Shown one piece after another: positions 33,977 to 45,380 of a DNA stretch of 64,000 bases. The DNA lies in NCBI GenBank assembly GCA_963692915.1, contig OY843584.1, positions 192,001-256,000 of the forward strand. Reading direction: 5' to 3'. The stretch is from Cenarchaeum sp. GTDB taxonomy: Archaea; Thermoproteota; Nitrososphaeria; Nitrososphaerales; Nitrosopumilaceae. Position 1 is the stretch's first letter; every line of letters starts with the position of its first letter. Both the position numbers and the translations under genes were made by a program. The notes beneath the pieces are model-generated. The model was not told the origin of the DNA. It worked only from the letters and a program-made list of their open reading frames with translations, and ran no database searches.

Positions 33977-34036
33977 GCTTGCGCACGCTTAACAATGTTT
34001 GAGATTTTCTTAATAATTATGGCCATGTTCTAAACC

Positions 34037-34043
34037 TTTAAAA
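34037..34043 (+). promoter_or_regulatory. TATA box for the metallothionein-like gene
   Basis: TTTAAAA ending 25 nt before ATG 34068, within an AT-rich stretch. Confidence 0.6.
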
Positions 34044-34067
34044 TCCGGCCCACTAGGCGTGGCGTGC

Positions 34068-34211
34068 ATGACGGATCAAGCCTGCGGCTGTGAGGCCGAT
34101 AGCGGCGACCCAGCCTATGCGTGCGACTGCGAGATGCAGGGGCACTGCATCTGCAGCGCGGACTGCCGCTGCAACACAAAGACCTGCAAGGAAGCAGTGT
34201 CCTCTCTCTAG
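34068..34211 (+). CDS. Metallothionein-like 47-aa protein (below ORF-track cutoff)
   Basis: MTDQACGCEADSGDPAYACDCEMQGHCICSADCRCNTKTCKEAVSSL*: four CxC motifs, 9 Cys, 1 His. Confidence 0.75.
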   Translation: MTDQACGCEADSGDPAYACDCEMQGHCICSADCRCNTKTCKEAVSSL

Positions 34212-34233
34212 GGGACACGCTTCCACTTTTTGC

Positions 34234-34398
34234 CTACTCGTCGGCCGCATAGCCCCACGACTTTACGAGCTCCTTTTGGAACTGGTCTGCCTGCTTGGCG
34301 CCAAGCGCGCTTCCGCAGTTCTTGTGCGTGGGGACTACCACCATTCCGGCGAGCTTGAACTCGACTTCGTACATGTGAACCTTGGGGCACTCGCACAC
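34234..34398 (-). CDS. Small hypothetical protein with CxC..H..C motif
   Basis: VCECPKVHMYEVEFKLAGMVVVPTHKNCG..FQKELVKSWG; GTG start inferred from upstream AT-rich box. Confidence 0.7.
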   Translation of the reverse strand: MCECPKVHMYEVEFKLAGMVVVPTHKNCGSALGAKQADQFQKELVKSWGYAADE

Positions 34399-40240: not shown

Positions 40241-40343
40241 CGTCTGGCGCGTGCCGGCACAGCCCCCCGAGTTGGTCAATTTGACCCAATCGGCAACAAA
40301 TAATGACGCACGTGCCCATTTTTGGCCTCCGAGACCCACGCCT

Positions 40344-43300
40344 ATGGGAGCCCCAACACTCGCAGCAGTGGCACTCGTCGCCCTCGCGGCGCTATACGCG
40401 GTGCCGGCAGCAGCCGAGGGGCCGGCCCACGAGTTCATCACGTCATGGGGCTCCCTTGGAGCCTCCGGCGAGGGCAGGTTTAGCGGCCCGACGGGCATCG
40501 CCTCTGACCACGAGGGCAACGTCTATGTGACTGACACGGGCAACGGCCGCGTCCAAAAGTTCAACAACTCGGGGGGCTTTGTGGCCGAGTGGAGCGCCAT
40601 GGGCAACTCGACTGAGTCGCTCTCCTCGCCCATGGGCATTGCGGTTCTCGACAACAGGGTCTATGTCATTGACAGCATTCTCGAGTCAGTCGTCGTGTAC
40701 GACCTTGATGGCACCTATGTCTCATCATGGGGATCGCACGGGGGCGATGCGGGGGAGTTTTTGCAGCCACGCGGGATAGCCGCCGGCAACGGAAGGATCT
40801 ATGTTACTGACACGGGCAACTCGCGTGCCCAGGCGTTCAGCGCAGAGGGAGCGCACATATCCACGTTTGGCACGGACAGGGACGAGGCGGCGCACCTCAG
40901 GTCACCAGTGGGCATTGCAGTTGCCAATGACGCAAGCGTGTTTATCGTTGATCCGGGCAAGATGTCACTGTTCCACTATGGGGTTGACGGGGAGCTCCTC
41001 GATGTCTTTGACGGCACGGTGGCCGGCAAGTCGTTGCGCGCCAGGGGCATGGCAGTCGACGGTGATGGCAAGCTCTATCTGGCCGATGCCCGAAACGACC
41101 GCGTTCTTCGCCTCGAGCCTGACGGCCTGACGCTCTCGGCATGGGGGGATGCCGGTGCAGGCGCGTACAAGTATCTGATGCCGACTGATGTCACCGTTGA
41201 CATATACGGGCAGCTCTTTGTCGTGGACTCGGGCGGGCACTCGATAAAGAAATACTCTACACCGCTTGCGCTAGATGACTCTGAGCGCATCGCCGTGCAC
41301 GAGGAGGCCGCCAGGCAGTTTAGGATCTCACAGGGCCTAGAGGAGCCCGAACAGGCCGCCGAGCCCGCACAAGAGTCGGCGCCACCGGCCGCCCGGCCAG
41401 CACCCCCACCGGCACAGCCGACGGCGCAGCCCGCACCGACAGCACCAGTCGCGCGCTCTGCCCCGCCGACGACGCCACCGGCAGCGCAGCCTGCCCCCGT
41501 CGCGACGGCGACGCTGCAGGTTACGCAGCAGCCCGTGGCCACGGCCCAGCCCGCGCGCGTCATGGCAGTGCCCGGCGACCTCACAAAGCCGACGATATAC
41601 GCCCCGCATGACATCACGGCCGAGGCTTCCGGACCGCTCACAAGGATAAACGTCGGAATGGCCACTGCGAGCGACGAGAGCGGCATACACTCGATCACAA
41701 GCAACGCGCCCTCCGAGTTCTCGCTGGGCACGAGCCTGGTGATCTGGACGGCCATAGACGGTGCGGGCAACCTGGCAATCGCAAGGCAGGAGGTCACCGT
41801 CTCGGACACGACGCCGCCGGCCATGGCAGGCGTGCCTGACATCTCCGTTGAGGCCGTCAGCCCGGACCGCAACTATATCGAGATTCGCGCCCCCGTTGCC
41901 ACCGACGCAGTCGGCGTGCTCGACGTCTCCTCTGATGCGCCAGACCACTATCCGGTCGGGCAGACGACGATCACGTGGACTGCCCGTGACATCTCGGGCA
42001 ACACGGCATCAGCCACGCAGGTCGTGAGCGTCCTGGACACGTCGGCCCCGCAGATCGTCGCGCCGCCGGAGATCACGGCCGAGGCGACAAGCCTGGATGC
42101 GACAGTGGTCTTTCTGGGTGACGCAAGCGTAGTTGACAATGGCCGTATAGTCTCAGTCACGAATGACGCGCCACCGTCATTTGCGCTTGGCAACACGACT
42201 GTCATGTGGATCGCGGTTGACTCGTCGGGAAACCGCTCGCATGATGCGCAGGTTGTGGCCATAGTCGACACGACACCGCCGGAGATCATCGTTCGCGAGG
42301 GAACCGTGGTGGAGGCCGAGTCAGCCGACTCTACCGCCGTGGACCTTGAGGAGCCTGAGGTCAGCGATGTCCAGCGCGTGAGGCTCACAAGCGACGCGCC
42401 TGCGTCGTTTGCCCTCGGCGAGACGACAGTCACGTGGACGGCGACGGACCCCTCGGGCAACACGTCGACTTCTGCACAGCTAGTCACGGTGGCTGACACG
42501 ACGCCGCCGGCCATCGACATCACGCGCACCATCACTGCTGAGGCCAGCAGGTCTGAGGGCAACACTGTCAGCCTCGGCGAGGTTGCAGTCACGGATGTGA
42601 GCGAGATTGCGGGCCTTGCCAATGACGCGCCCGAGTCATACGCGCTAGGCGAGACGACAGTCACGTGGAACGCCACGGACATACACGGCAACACGGCCAC
42701 AGCAGAGCAGACCGTGATCCTAGTCGACACGGTCTCCCCGTCGATCTTTGCGCCAGCTGACGTGACGGCCGAGTATGCCGGCGAGGCAGGAAACAGCGTA
42801 AACGTTGGCACTCCGGTCGCCGCAGACCGCGTGGGCGTCGCCTCGGTGTCAAGTGACGCGCCAGACACATTTGGCCTCGGCGAGACGACAGTCACGTGGA
42901 CCGCGACGGACACGTCAGGCAACGAGTCGACTGCATTGCAGACAATCACAATAGTGGACACGCTAGCGCCTGCCATACGCCCGCCGCCAGACGTGAGCGC
43001 CGAGGCCACTGCAGAGTCCGGCACGGCCGTTGAGGTGGGCCGGGCCACTGCCGCAGACGAGTCCGGCGAGGTCACAGTCACAAGCGACGCGCCTGCCCTC
43101 TTTGAGCTCGGAACCACGACAGTCACGTGGACCGCGACGGACACGTCAGGCAACATGATGAACGCGACGCAGAGGGTGAGCGTGACTGACACGATCCCCC
43201 CAGAGATCAGCGCACCTGCAGGCATACGGGCAGAGGCTGACTCGGAGGACGCAAACACTGTGGATCTCGGCACGGCCCGCGCAACTGACGCGGCAGGCAG

Positions 43301-45380
43301 CGTCACGGTGACAAGCGACGCGCCACTGGCGTTCCCCGTGGGCACCACTACAGTCACGTGGACCGCCGTCGACTCGTCAGGAAACGAGTCCACTGACACG
43401 CAAGAGATCACGTTTGTGGACACGACGAAACCGACAGTTTACGCGCCCGGCGACGTTACGGCCGAGGCCGGTCCGGACGTGCGCCTTGACATAGGCGAGG
43501 CCACGGCCACTGACGCGGTGGGCGTGGATGCGATAACGAGTGACGCGCCAGACTCGTTTGGGCCCGGCGAGACGACAGTTACGTGGACCGCGACGGATGC
43601 GGCGGGAAACTCGGCGAGCGCAACGCACACTGTGACGATAATTGACACGACGCAGCCGCTCATCGTGCCGCCACTGGCGCGCACCATCGAGGCGATGTCT
43701 GAGAACGGCAGTGCCGCAGACATTGGGTGGCCGACGCACTCTGATGCGGGTGGCGGCGTCACGATCGAGGGCGACGCGCCTGCAACGTTTCCCATCGGCG
43801 TGACTGCCGTGACATGGACTGCGACAGATGCGGCAGGCAACGTGCGCTCGGCTACGCAGAGCGTGACCGTCTCGGACACGATCGCCCCGTCAGTCACCCC
43901 GCCTGCTGACATTACCGCAGAGGCGACATCGCGCAACTTGACTGTGGTCGAGATCGGCGAGGCCACGGCCACTGACGCAGTGGGCGTGGTTGCGATAACG
44001 AGCGACGCGCCGGCGGCCTTTGCGCTCGGCGAGACGACAGTCGCGTGGACCGCGACGGATGCTGCAGGAAACTCTGCTAGCGGGCTCCAGATGGTCACCA
44101 TAGTCGACACGACCCCGCCGAGCCTCTCGGCGCCTGCCGATGTGACTGCCGAAGCCTCCTCCTCGGGCACGACTAGCGTGGATATCGGCGAGCCCGAGTC
44201 CACTGACACGGTCTCTGAGGAGATTGTCATCACCAGTGATGCGCCAGACGGCTATGAGCTCGGCGAGACGACAGTCACGTGGACCGCGACGGATGCGGCA
44301 GGCAACTCTGCCTCGCATGAACAGCTTGTGACAGTGGAGGACACGACCCCGCCGACAGTTGTGCCGCCGGCTGACATTGTGGCCGAGGCTGAGTCATCAG
44401 ACGGCTCAGTCGTGGACATTGGGATTGCCGGAACAGAGGACTCTGTTGGCACGATTTCGCTCACAAGTGACGAGCCGGCACTGTTCCCAATCGGCGAGAC
44501 GACAGTCACGTGGACTGCGACGGATGCGGCAGGCAACGAGGGAACCGCAGCACAGCTCGTGACTGTCACTGACACCGTTGCGCCGCGAATCGTCTCACCG
44601 ATTGACATTGTTGCCGAGTCTACCTCAACGAACGGCACGCGCATTGTCCTAGGTGACGCATCCACGTCTGATGCCGTTGGCGTGACGTCCGTGTCCAATG
44701 ACGCGCCAGAGCTCTTTGGACTGGGCAGGACGATGGTCACGTGGGAGGCCACAGATGAGGCAGGCAACATTGCCGTCGCGCTCCAGTCCGTGACCCTCCG
44801 CGACACTGTCGCCCCGCAGATTGAGACTCCTTCAGGCATGACACTCAACGCAACGGCGCCGTTCACGTCAGTCACGCTATCCATACCCATCTTGTCTGAC
44901 GCGGTGGACACCTCGCCTGTCCTGGTCTCTGATGCGCCTGACTCGTTTGCGCTCGGAACGACCATGGTGACCTGGAACGCAACAGACGCGGCCGGCAACA
45001 CGTCAAGCGTCGTCCAGCCAGTCACGGTCCTTGCGTGCGGCACTGCGCACTCGACGTACAACGTGATACGCGGCACGGCCGGTGACGACTCGCTAGTCGG
45101 CACCAGCGCCGCTGACCTGATCTTTGCGCTAGCGGGCAACGACGTCATTAGCGCCGGCGGCGGCAATGACTGCGTGATCGCCGGCGACGGTGATGACGTT
45201 GTCATCGGCGGCGACGGCGCGGACATCCTTGGCGGCAACGCCGGCGATGACGTTGTGCGCGGCCAGGACGGCGATGACCTGCTTGACGGCGGCGAGGGCT
45301 CTGATGTCATCGACGGCGGCGACGGCTCTGACTCGTGCGTGGCCTCTGCAGGCGACTCTGTCCTCCGCTGCGAGGCGTAG
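40344..45380 (+). CDS. Large secreted protein: NHL beta-propeller, Pro/Ala linker, 15 HYR-like domains, C-terminal RTX/hemolysin-type Ca-binding repeats
   Basis: PTGIASD..VYVTDTGNGRVQKF (NHL); repeated DTTPP..FxxGETTVTWTATDAAGN; GGxGxD nonapeptides. Confidence 0.9.
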   Translation: MGAPTLAAVALVALAALYAVPAAAEGPAHEFITSWGSLGASGEGRFSGPTGIASDHEGNVYVTDTGNGRVQKFNNSGGFVAEWSAMGNSTESLSSPMGIAVLDNRVYVIDSILESVVVYDLDGTYVSSWGSHGGDAGEFLQPRGIAAGNGRIYVTDTGNSRAQAFSAEGAHISTFGTDRDEAAHLRSPVGIAVANDASVFIVDPGKMSLFHYGVDGELLDVFDGTVAGKSLRARGMAVDGDGKLYLADARNDRVLRLEPDGLTLSAWGDAGAGAYKYLMPTDVTVDIYGQLFVVDSGGHSIKKYSTPLALDDSERIAVHEEAARQFRISQGLEEPEQAAEPAQESAPPAARPAPPPAQPTAQPAPTAPVARSAPPTTPPAAQPAPVATATLQVTQQPVATAQPARVMAVPGDLTKPTIYAPHDITAEASGPLTRINVGMATASDESGIHSITSNAPSEFSLGTSLVIWTAIDGAGNLAIARQEVTVSDTTPPAMAGVPDISVEAVSPDRNYIEIRAPVATDAVGVLDVSSDAPDHYPVGQTTITWTARDISGNTASATQVVSVLDTSAPQIVAPPEITAEATSLDATVVFLGDASVVDNGRIVSVTNDAPPSFALGNTTVMWIAVDSSGNRSHDAQVVAIVDTTPPEIIVREGTVVEAESADSTAVDLEEPEVSDVQRVRLTSDAPASFALGETTVTWTATDPSGNTSTSAQLVTVADTTPPAIDITRTITAEASRSEGNTVSLGEVAVTDVSEIAGLANDAPESYALGETTVTWNATDIHGNTATAEQTVILVDTVSPSIFAPADVTAEYAGEAGNSVNVGTPVAADRVGVASVSSDAPDTFGLGETTVTWTATDTSGNESTALQTITIVDTLAPAIRPPPDVSAEATAESGTAVEVGRATAADESGEVTVTSDAPALFELGTTTVTWTATDTSGNMMNATQRVSVTDTIPPEISAPAGIRAEADSEDANTVDLGTARATDAAGSVTVTSDAPLAFPVGTTTVTWTAVDSSGNESTDTQEITFVDTTKPTVYAPGDVTAEAGPDVRLDIGEATATDAVGVDAITSDAPDSFGPGETTVTWTATDAAGNSASATHTVTIIDTTQPLIVPPLARTIEAMSENGSAADIGWPTHSDAGGGVTIEGDAPATFPIGVTAVTWTATDAAGNVRSATQSVTVSDTIAPSVTPPADITAEATSRNLTVVEIGEATATDAVGVVAITSDAPAAFALGETTVAWTATDAAGNSASGLQMVTIVDTTPPSLSAPADVTAEASSSGTTSVDIGEPESTDTVSEEIVITSDAPDGYELGETTVTWTATDAAGNSASHEQLVTVEDTTPPTVVPPADIVAEAESSDGSVVDIGIAGTEDSVGTISLTSDEPALFPIGETTVTWTATDAAGNEGTAAQLVTVTDTVAPRIVSPIDIVAESTSTNGTRIVLGDASTSDAVGVTSVSNDAPELFGLGRTMVTWEATDEAGNIAVALQSVTLRDTVAPQIETPSGMTLNATAPFTSVTLSIPILSDAVDTSPVLVSDAPDSFALGTTMVTWNATDAAGNTSSVVQPVTVLACGTAHSTYNVIRGTAGDDSLVGTSAADLIFALAGNDVISAGGGNDCVIAGDGDDVVIGGDGADILGGNAGDDVVRGQDGDDLLDGGEGSDVIDGGDGSDSCVASAGDSVLRCEA

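Follow-up and report, generated by a model that had tools for sequence, protein, structure and literature searches.

Does an open reading frame of 47 codons with nine cysteines (Cys), found in the genome of a marine ammonia-oxidizing archaeon, encode a protein and, if it does, is that protein a metallothionein? The question is raised by a stretch of 64,000 nucleotides (nt) from Cenarchaeum sp. (family Nitrosopumilaceae; assembly GCA_963692915.1, contig OY843584.1, positions 192,001 to 256,000 of the forward strand), hereafter the window, in which an initial annotation made from the sequence alone had proposed an unannotated metallothionein-like gene with its own promoter, possibly regulated by metal. 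We find that the frame, here called Cys9, is a real gene conserved across marine ammonia-oxidizing archaea (AOA), and consider it rather probable, on the basis of composition, the invariant Cys, and context, that its product is a metallothionein-like metal-thiolate cluster protein.

A conserved small gene and its family

Translation of the window gives exactly the 47-amino-acid (aa) protein quoted in the initial annotation, with all nine Cys, the four CxC motifs, and the single histidine (His) that it had counted. The Cys lie at positions 6, 8, 19, 21, 27, 29, 33, 35, and 40, forming four CxC pairs and one single Cys with the spacing CxC-x10-CxC-x5-CxC-x3-CxC-x4-C, and make up 9 of the 47 residues (19%); the sole His is H26, the sole aromatic residue is Y17, and no signal peptide was seen in the protein. 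GC content in the surrounding region is about 65%, interrupted by an AT-rich island at 33990-34045, and several overlapping frames run through the locus on both strands. The third-position GC content of the Cys9 frame is 0.79, compared with 0.72-0.80 in the neighboring genes and 0.57 in an overlapping 114-aa frame.

Relatives were searched in all six frames, in 60 genomes comprising 36 of the same family and 24 from 19 other families of the order. Of the 36 same-family genomes, 35 gave a match at E < 0.01, and 33 of these reached E < 0.001; the sole miss (G004) is a genome that is 91% complete and in 130 contigs. Outside the family, the 24 genomes yielded no significant match, only two weak ones (E of 0.18 and 0.27), and the named homologs of the Cys9 protein come from Nitrosopumilus. 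The gene was extracted from 20 loci, of which 18 hold free-standing genes of 47-49 codons. The proteins of these 18 orthologs are 72-94% identical to the window protein, and the genes span 29-72% local GC and 16-89% third-position GC. All 18 start with M-[T/V/A]-D-Q in alignment with ATG 34068, which was for this reason taken as the start codon in preference to the upstream GTG at 34059. The ratio of nonsynonymous to synonymous substitution rates (dN/dS) was 0.07-0.29 in 10 unsaturated pairs, out of 14 pairs chosen from 190 possible, the remaining four being saturated at synonymous sites. The initial annotation had held that the proposal would fall if the protein were not conserved; what was found instead is near-universal presence in the family, purifying selection, and, in a selected alignment described below, nine invariant Cys.

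The Cys pattern alone is not beyond chance, because other frames of the genome carry it: across the whole genome (1.64 Mb, 59% GC), 9 of the 31,498 open frames of at least 30 aa contain at least four CxC within 45 residues, and most of these nine are obvious Arg/Trp-rich junk frames. It is conservation that shows the gene to be real. The same scan for CxC also exposed a 126-aa open frame with three successive CxC (CKCVCEFC...CEC) on the minus strand of the window at ~9870, corresponding to ~201870 of the single contig C1 of the window genome (G000).

The promoter is likewise real. The TATA element AACCTTTAAAAT occurs once in the 64-kb window, with 0 occurrences expected from 100 shuffles; its core, TTTAAAAT, begins 31 nt before the ATG, and the center of the TATA box lies ~27 nt before it, implying a leaderless or near-leaderless mRNA. 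In a genome scan for TATA-like heptamers (382 sites, 159 of them with the start of an ORF of at least 100 aa 15-80 nt downstream), the start codon lay 30-33 nt downstream at 48 of the 159 sites; this sharp peak reflects the spacing usual for leaderless genes here. The TATA box that the initial annotation had placed at the expected distance thus falls, at 31 nt, inside this peak. Across the free-standing orthologs, the shared promoter element is aaC(c/t)TTTAAAA: in 18 of 18 loci, a TTTAAAA or TTTATAA box preceded by aaC(c/t) begins 28-31 nt upstream of the start codon, and this fixed placement, together with conservation, bears out the earlier claim of a genuine small gene with its own promoter. 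No Shine-Dalgarno-like sequence was found before ATG 34068, and, judging from the TATA spacing, the Cys9 mRNA is probably leaderless. At the other end, a T-rich run that likely terminates transcription comes after the stop codon in each of the 20 loci.

Members of the family come in four kinds: two are free proteins, of 47-49 aa and of 44 aa, and in the other two the module is the tail of a larger protein, either one of ~455 aa or one of 129 aa with two transmembrane (TM) helices. A first alignment was built from 39 database homologs, in which each Cys position is either invariant or conserved in at least 90% of the sequences. A second, of 44 sequences, omits four of these homologs (P0026, P0050, P0051, and P0062) along with the N-terminally extended P0002 and adds distant members; in this selected set, which covers both free types and the fused tails, the nine Cys and G7, D20, and Q24 are invariant, and D3, A5, A10, M23, and K41 are at least 90% conserved. 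Position 26 is occupied by H, A, T, S, or E, and H26, not being conserved, is no obligate ligand. The sole Tyr is kept as Y or F in the 47-aa type and is absent from the 44-aa and tail types. An exhaustive hidden Markov model search of 1.84 billion representative proteins returned only 28 at E ≤ 0.001, and 16 of the 17 inspected belong to the Cys9 family, the exception being P0110, a His/Cys-repeat protein judged to be a compositional match. Since the inspected matches are nearly all from the family itself, the search revealed no bridge between it and bacterial or eukaryotic metallothioneins. The exact 47-aa protein is absent from a collection of 15 billion proteins, in which close homologs are present.

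The fused forms, which occur in other genera, place the module on membrane proteins. The ~455-aa protein consists, in order, of a signal peptide, a ~300-residue ectodomain, one TM helix, a basic stretch, a ~70-residue low-complexity linker, and Cys9, and the position of the tail after the TM helix and the positively charged stretch indicates that it is cytoplasmic; in the 129-aa protein, the module is again the C-terminus. As gauged by the open-frame length of matches to the window protein, a fused copy is present in 13 of the 36 family genomes. At one locus (L007 268-1647, plus strand, genome G016), the tail of the 455-aa protein is of the free 47-aa type, keeps M-T-D-Q, and is 83% identical to the window protein. 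The retained start indicates exchange between free and fused copies, and the sequence of this tail suggests a recent recombination of the free gene with the tail. The window genome's orthologs of both membrane proteins end just where the tail would begin, and the free gene is the sole Cys9 copy there, so that, going by these sequences, both tails were apparently lost in the high-GC genus to which this genome belongs, and the free gene alone was kept. The 455-aa fusion partner itself has no significant Pfam match (only DUF2749, E 0.03, under the cut-off); its AlphaFold model has a mean predicted local distance difference test (pLDDT) score of 52.7, is confident at residues ~40-200, and has no Foldseek match at E ≤ 0.001.

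Likeness to metallothioneins and the rival readings

As a metal-thiolate cluster protein, Cys9 would be a cytoplasmic, very acidic protein of 47 residues whose nine Cys fold around a single cluster. By analogy with the animal beta-domain, the cluster might hold three divalent ions (Zn/Cd) or four to six Cu(I), and the invariant Met23 near the second CxC pair is a weak hint at Cu(I). A strong TATA promoter of the gene's own, fixed in its placement, drives transcription of what is probably a leaderless mRNA, ending at the oligo-T run. The product would be a housekeeping protein of the marine ammonia-oxidizing family that buffers, stores, or chaperones metal, rather than an inducible detoxifier.

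In its make-up, the protein has the traits of metallothioneins: a low mass (47 aa, with homologs of 44-49 aa, under the customary ~10 kDa), a Cys content of the kind arranged in CxC, CxxC, or CC motifs at fixed positions, few aromatic residues, and no obligatory His. To this extent the label metallothionein-like given in the initial annotation stands, on the strength of small size and Cys-rich composition; as to sequence, no described metallothionein family was matched. A protein-language-model search placed metallothionein clusters (0.86, 0.78, and 0.77) after the family's own unnamed clusters, a result that serves as a lead only. AlphaFold, given the 44-sequence alignment, produced a moderate model (pLDDT 72.5) with two short helices, for which no fold match was found in the PDB by Foldseek and none at Z ≥ 2 among 48,161 chains by VIA-align; phmmer with the window protein likewise gave 0 matches in the PDB at E ≤ 10. 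A moderate model and the lack of a fold match fit a fold dictated by metal.

The closest parallel is with animals. The beta-domain of vertebrate metallothioneins carries nine Cys as four CxC and a final single Cys, and both it (PF00131) and Cys9 thus present four CxC plus a single Cys in a short, nearly aromatic-free peptide. A metallothionein beta-domain usually holds 3 metal ions, according to the passages of a review consulted here (PMC3600143). The linkers of Cys9, in contrast, are about twice as long (10, 5, 3, and 4 residues), and the protein is acidic, not Lys-rich, and consists of a single domain with a predicted C-terminal helix and strongly conserved non-Cys residues. Because of the longer linkers and the acidic character, the likeness is read as functional convergence, and it is most likely convergent, not homologous.

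Among prokaryotes, SmtA/BmtA (PF02069) and the mycobacterial MymT are likewise small cytosolic Cys-rich metal binders. SmtA has nine Cys, and two conserved His contribute to its cluster, which sits in a zinc-finger-like fold. In Cys9, the His is not conserved and no regulator gene adjoins the gene, whereas smtA is paired with the SmtB repressor in the account excerpted from PMC12193353. PF02069 had no match at E ≤ 10 in the 44 members, from which the Cys9His2 ligand set is absent, and Cys9 is thus no member of that family. The copper storage protein Csp (PF03860) is a four-helix bundle of ~120 aa with ~18 Cys, to which the Cys9 protein is unrelated in sequence and size. The role proposed for the two is the same, that of a cytosolic thiolate store for Cu(I) in a copper-dependent ammonia oxidizer (PMC7785015, in the part drawn on).

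The genomic context concerns the same role. AOA depend heavily on copper, with an energy metabolism built on copper enzymes; Csp, CopA, and CopZ are in use among soil ammonia oxidizers, and one of these, Nitrososphaera viennensis, is described as possessing a Csp, two P1B ATPases, and CopZ (all from the portion of PMC7785015 used here). The window genome, which is 99.86% complete and in one contig, has no match to PF00403 (HMA, heavy-metal-associated domain), PF00122 (P-type ATPase), or PF03860 (Csp/DUF326). HMA occurs in 9 of the 36 family genomes, compared with 16 of the 24 outside, mostly within ATPase-sized frames of ~820 aa, and Csp in only 1 of the 36, counts in which relatives are non-independent samples. 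Given the absence of an HMA chaperone, P-type ATPase, and Csp, the Cys9 protein and a 33-residue mini-protein are the only recognizable cytosolic thiolate metal binders of this genome. The gene for the latter (33 aa, 10 Cys; G000:C1:1469663-1469761, minus strand; L028 861-962, minus strand) lies outside the window, is convergent to and abuts the truncated gene of the two-TM protein, and is conserved in 34 of the 36 family genomes and, beyond them, in both genomes searched from another family; its product is unrelated in sequence to the 47-aa protein.

A number of observations weigh against a metallothionein-like role. In sequence, the window protein matched no Pfam or NCBIfam model at E ≤ 1. 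Matches to PF00131 (Metallothio) are weak and confined, at E ≤ 10, to 11 of the 44 members (best E 0.01), with none in the other 33; the match examined aligns residues 18-45 with profile positions 5-32 of 64, in the N-terminal (beta) half, and scores 15.1 bits against a cut-off of 23, so that with members under the gathering threshold, and the window protein without a match at E ≤ 1, Cys9 does not belong to PF00131. An unrelated Cys-containing domain, PF22906, gives weak matches in 19 of the 44 (E ≤ 10). The sole match of a profile search of the PDB was a UBR-box zinc finger (E 0.023), which is not significant and reflects Cys bias. Within the family, the 39-sequence set contains exceptions to the Cys pattern, namely C19S (P0026), C29S (P0050), and frameshifted C-termini (P0051 and P0062). 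The strong conservation of non-Cys residues (A5, G7, A10, D20, M23, Q24, and K41, each at least 90%) is unusual for a metallothionein and indicates a specific fold or partner, not a generic buffer. The net charge of the 47-aa protein is ~-5 before metal, as against the Lys-rich animal forms. As for context, the Cys9 gene is present too in the 9 family genomes with HMA proteins, and the failure to find HMA, P-type ATPase, or Csp in the window genome is only circumstantial; no metal sensor, transporter, or homeostasis gene of a recognized family was found nearby by Pfam; and a search of the full-text literature, omics supplementary tables aside, found no study and no metal-binding, expression, or phenotype data for any member. 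None of the 13 sequencing runs listed for this locus, all DNA or of unknown kind, is recorded as RNA.

Given the strong non-Cys conservation and the use of the module as a membrane tail, two other roles stay in play, a chaperone or sensor specific to a partner and a structural zinc module. The latter, which we regard as unlikely, would be a zinc-finger-like structural or interaction module with one to three structural Zn and a conserved surface that binds a protein or nucleic-acid partner; buffering would not be its job, and the free form could regulate or compete with the membrane-protein tails. Non-Cys conservation of a degree atypical of metallothioneins would suit such a module, as would its attachment to two different membrane proteins in the manner of docking or signaling domains, a predicted C-terminal amphipathic helix (residues 38-46), and the borderline UBR-box match, in which residues 4-33 align, including a G-x-x-Y-x-C-D-C-like stretch. 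That match, however, falls short of significance, and the Cys spacing differs, the ligands of the UBR box (PDB 3ny1 and relatives) being CxxC and His, compared with CxC in Cys9, with no structural match between them. Four CxC pairs typify clustered, bridging thiolates, not independent tetrahedral Zn sites; moreover, neither Foldseek nor VIA-align returned a zinc-finger fold, and the module is without a known partner.

Less probable still is a small iron-sulfur (Fe-S) or other redox-active cluster protein acting as an electron carrier or a redox/thiol sensor. Small size, strong acidity, and 8-9 Cys are shared with clostridial-type ferredoxins, and CxC pairs can ligate a 2Fe-2S cluster in CDGSH proteins, but neither the CxxCxxCxxxCP nor the CDGSH motif occurs in the sequence, the partner His of CDGSH-type sites has its only candidate in the variable H26, and neither Fer4 nor any other Fe-S Pfam family matched the 44 members even at E ≤ 10, so that by sequence Cys9 belongs to none of them.

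We give little credence to a precursor of a ribosomally synthesized and post-translationally modified peptide (RiPP), in which a Cys-rich peptide would be modified and processed by a neighboring enzyme, for example the 305-aa protein encoded upstream. A small Cys-rich ORF does adjoin this conserved protein in 15 of 20 loci. There is, however, no split into leader and core, all 47 residues being conserved, the same module forms the C-terminus of the 455-aa and 129-aa proteins, and no radical-SAM, cyclodehydratase, or lanthipeptide family is encoded nearby. The 305-aa gene, furthermore, is more widely spread than Cys9 and is broken in one genome and not found in another where Cys9 is intact, which argues against a pairing of enzyme and substrate; with the whole length conserved, the presumed enzyme dispensable, and the module found on larger proteins, Cys9 does not fit the description of a RiPP precursor.

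That the frame arose by chance in GC-rich DNA and is no gene, as the eight other frames with at least four CxC and the overlapping frames on both strands could suggest, is practically out of the question, this reading being refuted, as far as computation goes, by conservation of the protein across 29-72% GC with low dN/dS and by a promoter and terminator at a fixed place.

Upstream dyads and neighboring genes

The two short dyads that the initial annotation had noted in the AT-rich stretch upstream both exist, AACAATGTT at 33991-33999 and ATAATTAT at 34012-34019. AACAATGTT is present once in the window, as it is in 11 of 100 shuffles, so that its occurrence is not beyond chance. Only the four members of the high-GC genus (L001, L002, L004, and L005) allow the AT-rich element with the dyads to be aligned, and even among these four loci bases change within both dyads: AACAATGTT is exact in two and replaced by AACAAGGTT in the other two, and ATAATTAT is exact in one, that of the window. 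In the other 14 free-standing loci, the word AACAA[T/G] is missing or found at shifting positions. A family-wide metal operator made up of the dyads was accordingly rejected, as their position is not conserved beyond the genus and AACAATGTT is no rarer than chance. The element includes a T-run and follows closely on the upstream gene, whose terminator it may therefore be; alternatively, it may be a genus-specific regulator site. Regulation by metal, which the initial annotation had considered possible, finds no support in dyads limited to one genus or in a neighborhood devoid of recognized metal-homeostasis genes.

This neighborhood codes for ribonucleotide reductases, ribosomal protein S19e, a dsDNA-binding protein, an F420 ligase, TPR, PRC-barrel, and ABC-transporter proteins, and a giant surface protein. 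Immediately around Cys9, the order of genes is the 305-aa protein, Cys9, a convergent gene for a 54-aa protein, and a secreted protein (Table 1). The 305-aa protein has no Pfam, NCBIfam, or PDB-profile match and was found in 35 of the 36 family genomes and 15 of the 24 outside. Its gene is broken by several stop codons in G034 (G034:C2:82609-83327), the smallest genome searched (~0.9 Mb), and was not found in G011, with Cys9 intact in both. The protein occurs across the order and has the N-terminal motif G-G-C...C-C-E-Y-x-I-T-x-F-D.

Encoded by a gene with a conserved promoter of its own, the 54-aa protein opens with M-C-E-C, contains a conserved THKNCG motif, and ends in an acidic C-terminus. 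In 11 of the 16 loci with a match, the match begins at residue 23 of a 76-aa frame; in L001, L002, and L004, it spans the whole 76-aa frame. No Pfam match was obtained and a protein atlas gave unnamed clusters only; from its sequence, it is possibly a small Zn-binding protein. The secreted protein of ~493 aa belongs to no Pfam family, and its C-terminus contains two copies of a ~35-residue motif (PSWIKQTAGFWV.GHTGDAEFVAAIEFL...). Farther along the window, a 1709-aa surface protein (40251-45380, plus strand) contains NHL, eight HYR, and RTX calcium-binding repeats.

Table 1. Features of the Cys9 locus (window coordinates) and the tail-less membrane-protein genes elsewhere in the window genome
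Feature	Position	Strand	Remarks
Upstream conserved protein, 305 aa	33059..33976	+	Syntenic in 15/20 loci (tblastn); fragmentary match in L020
AT-rich element with both dyads and T-run (GATTTTCTT)	33990..34022	+	Alignable only within genus
Promoter (AACCTTTAAAAT): AAC resembling the transcription factor B recognition element (BRE), then TATA box TTTAAAAT (34037-44)	34033..34044	+	Unique motif, conserved placement
Cys9 coding sequence	34068..34211	+	ATG 34068 to TAG 34209-34211, 47 aa
Oligo-T run TTTTT, likely archaeal-type terminator	34227..34231	+	16 nt after stop codon
Convergent 54-aa protein	34234..34398	-	GTG start here; tblastn match in 16/20 loci
Secreted or surface protein, ~493 aa	34454..35935	+	Syntenic in 17/20 loci; signal-peptide-like N-terminus
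Tail-less membrane-protein ortholog	G000:C1:549703-550869 (L026 1342-2715)	+	Ends before the Cys9 point
Tail-less membrane-protein ortholog	L028 616-864	+	Ends before the Cys9 point

Existing records and meaning for marine ammonia oxidizers

The description of the gene as unannotated does not hold for the family. Public collections contain homologs, most of them recorded as "hypothetical protein" and some as "Metallothionein" (UniRef) or "metallothionein 4" (JGI), names that are automatic; gene calling is uneven, with homologs that are labeled hypothetical, carry wrong N-terminal extensions, or are named automatically. A 2013 review states, in the section quoted, that "MTs are absent in archaea" (PMC3600143). 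Judged from its sequences, Cys9 would be an independently evolved, lineage-restricted metallothionein-type family that is in the databases but uncharacterized.

A more far-reaching version of this reading, which we put forward only tentatively and hold to be doubtful, is that Cys9 would be the first archaeal metallothionein family and the principal cytosolic buffer and donor of Cu(I)/Zn(II) in marine AOA, replacing the toolkit of CopZ, P1B-ATPase, and Csp, which is missing from most of these genomes, with the form fused to the lineage's conserved membrane protein reporting or handing over cytoplasmic metal at the membrane.

Marine AOA are some of the most abundant cells in the ocean, and the near-universal, strongly expressed-looking Cys9 protein is a testable candidate for their missing cytosolic metal buffer. 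If metal-cluster binding were demonstrated, it would overturn the statement, as worded in the quoted section of that review, that archaea have no metallothioneins, and would add a new, independently evolved family to the metallothioneins.

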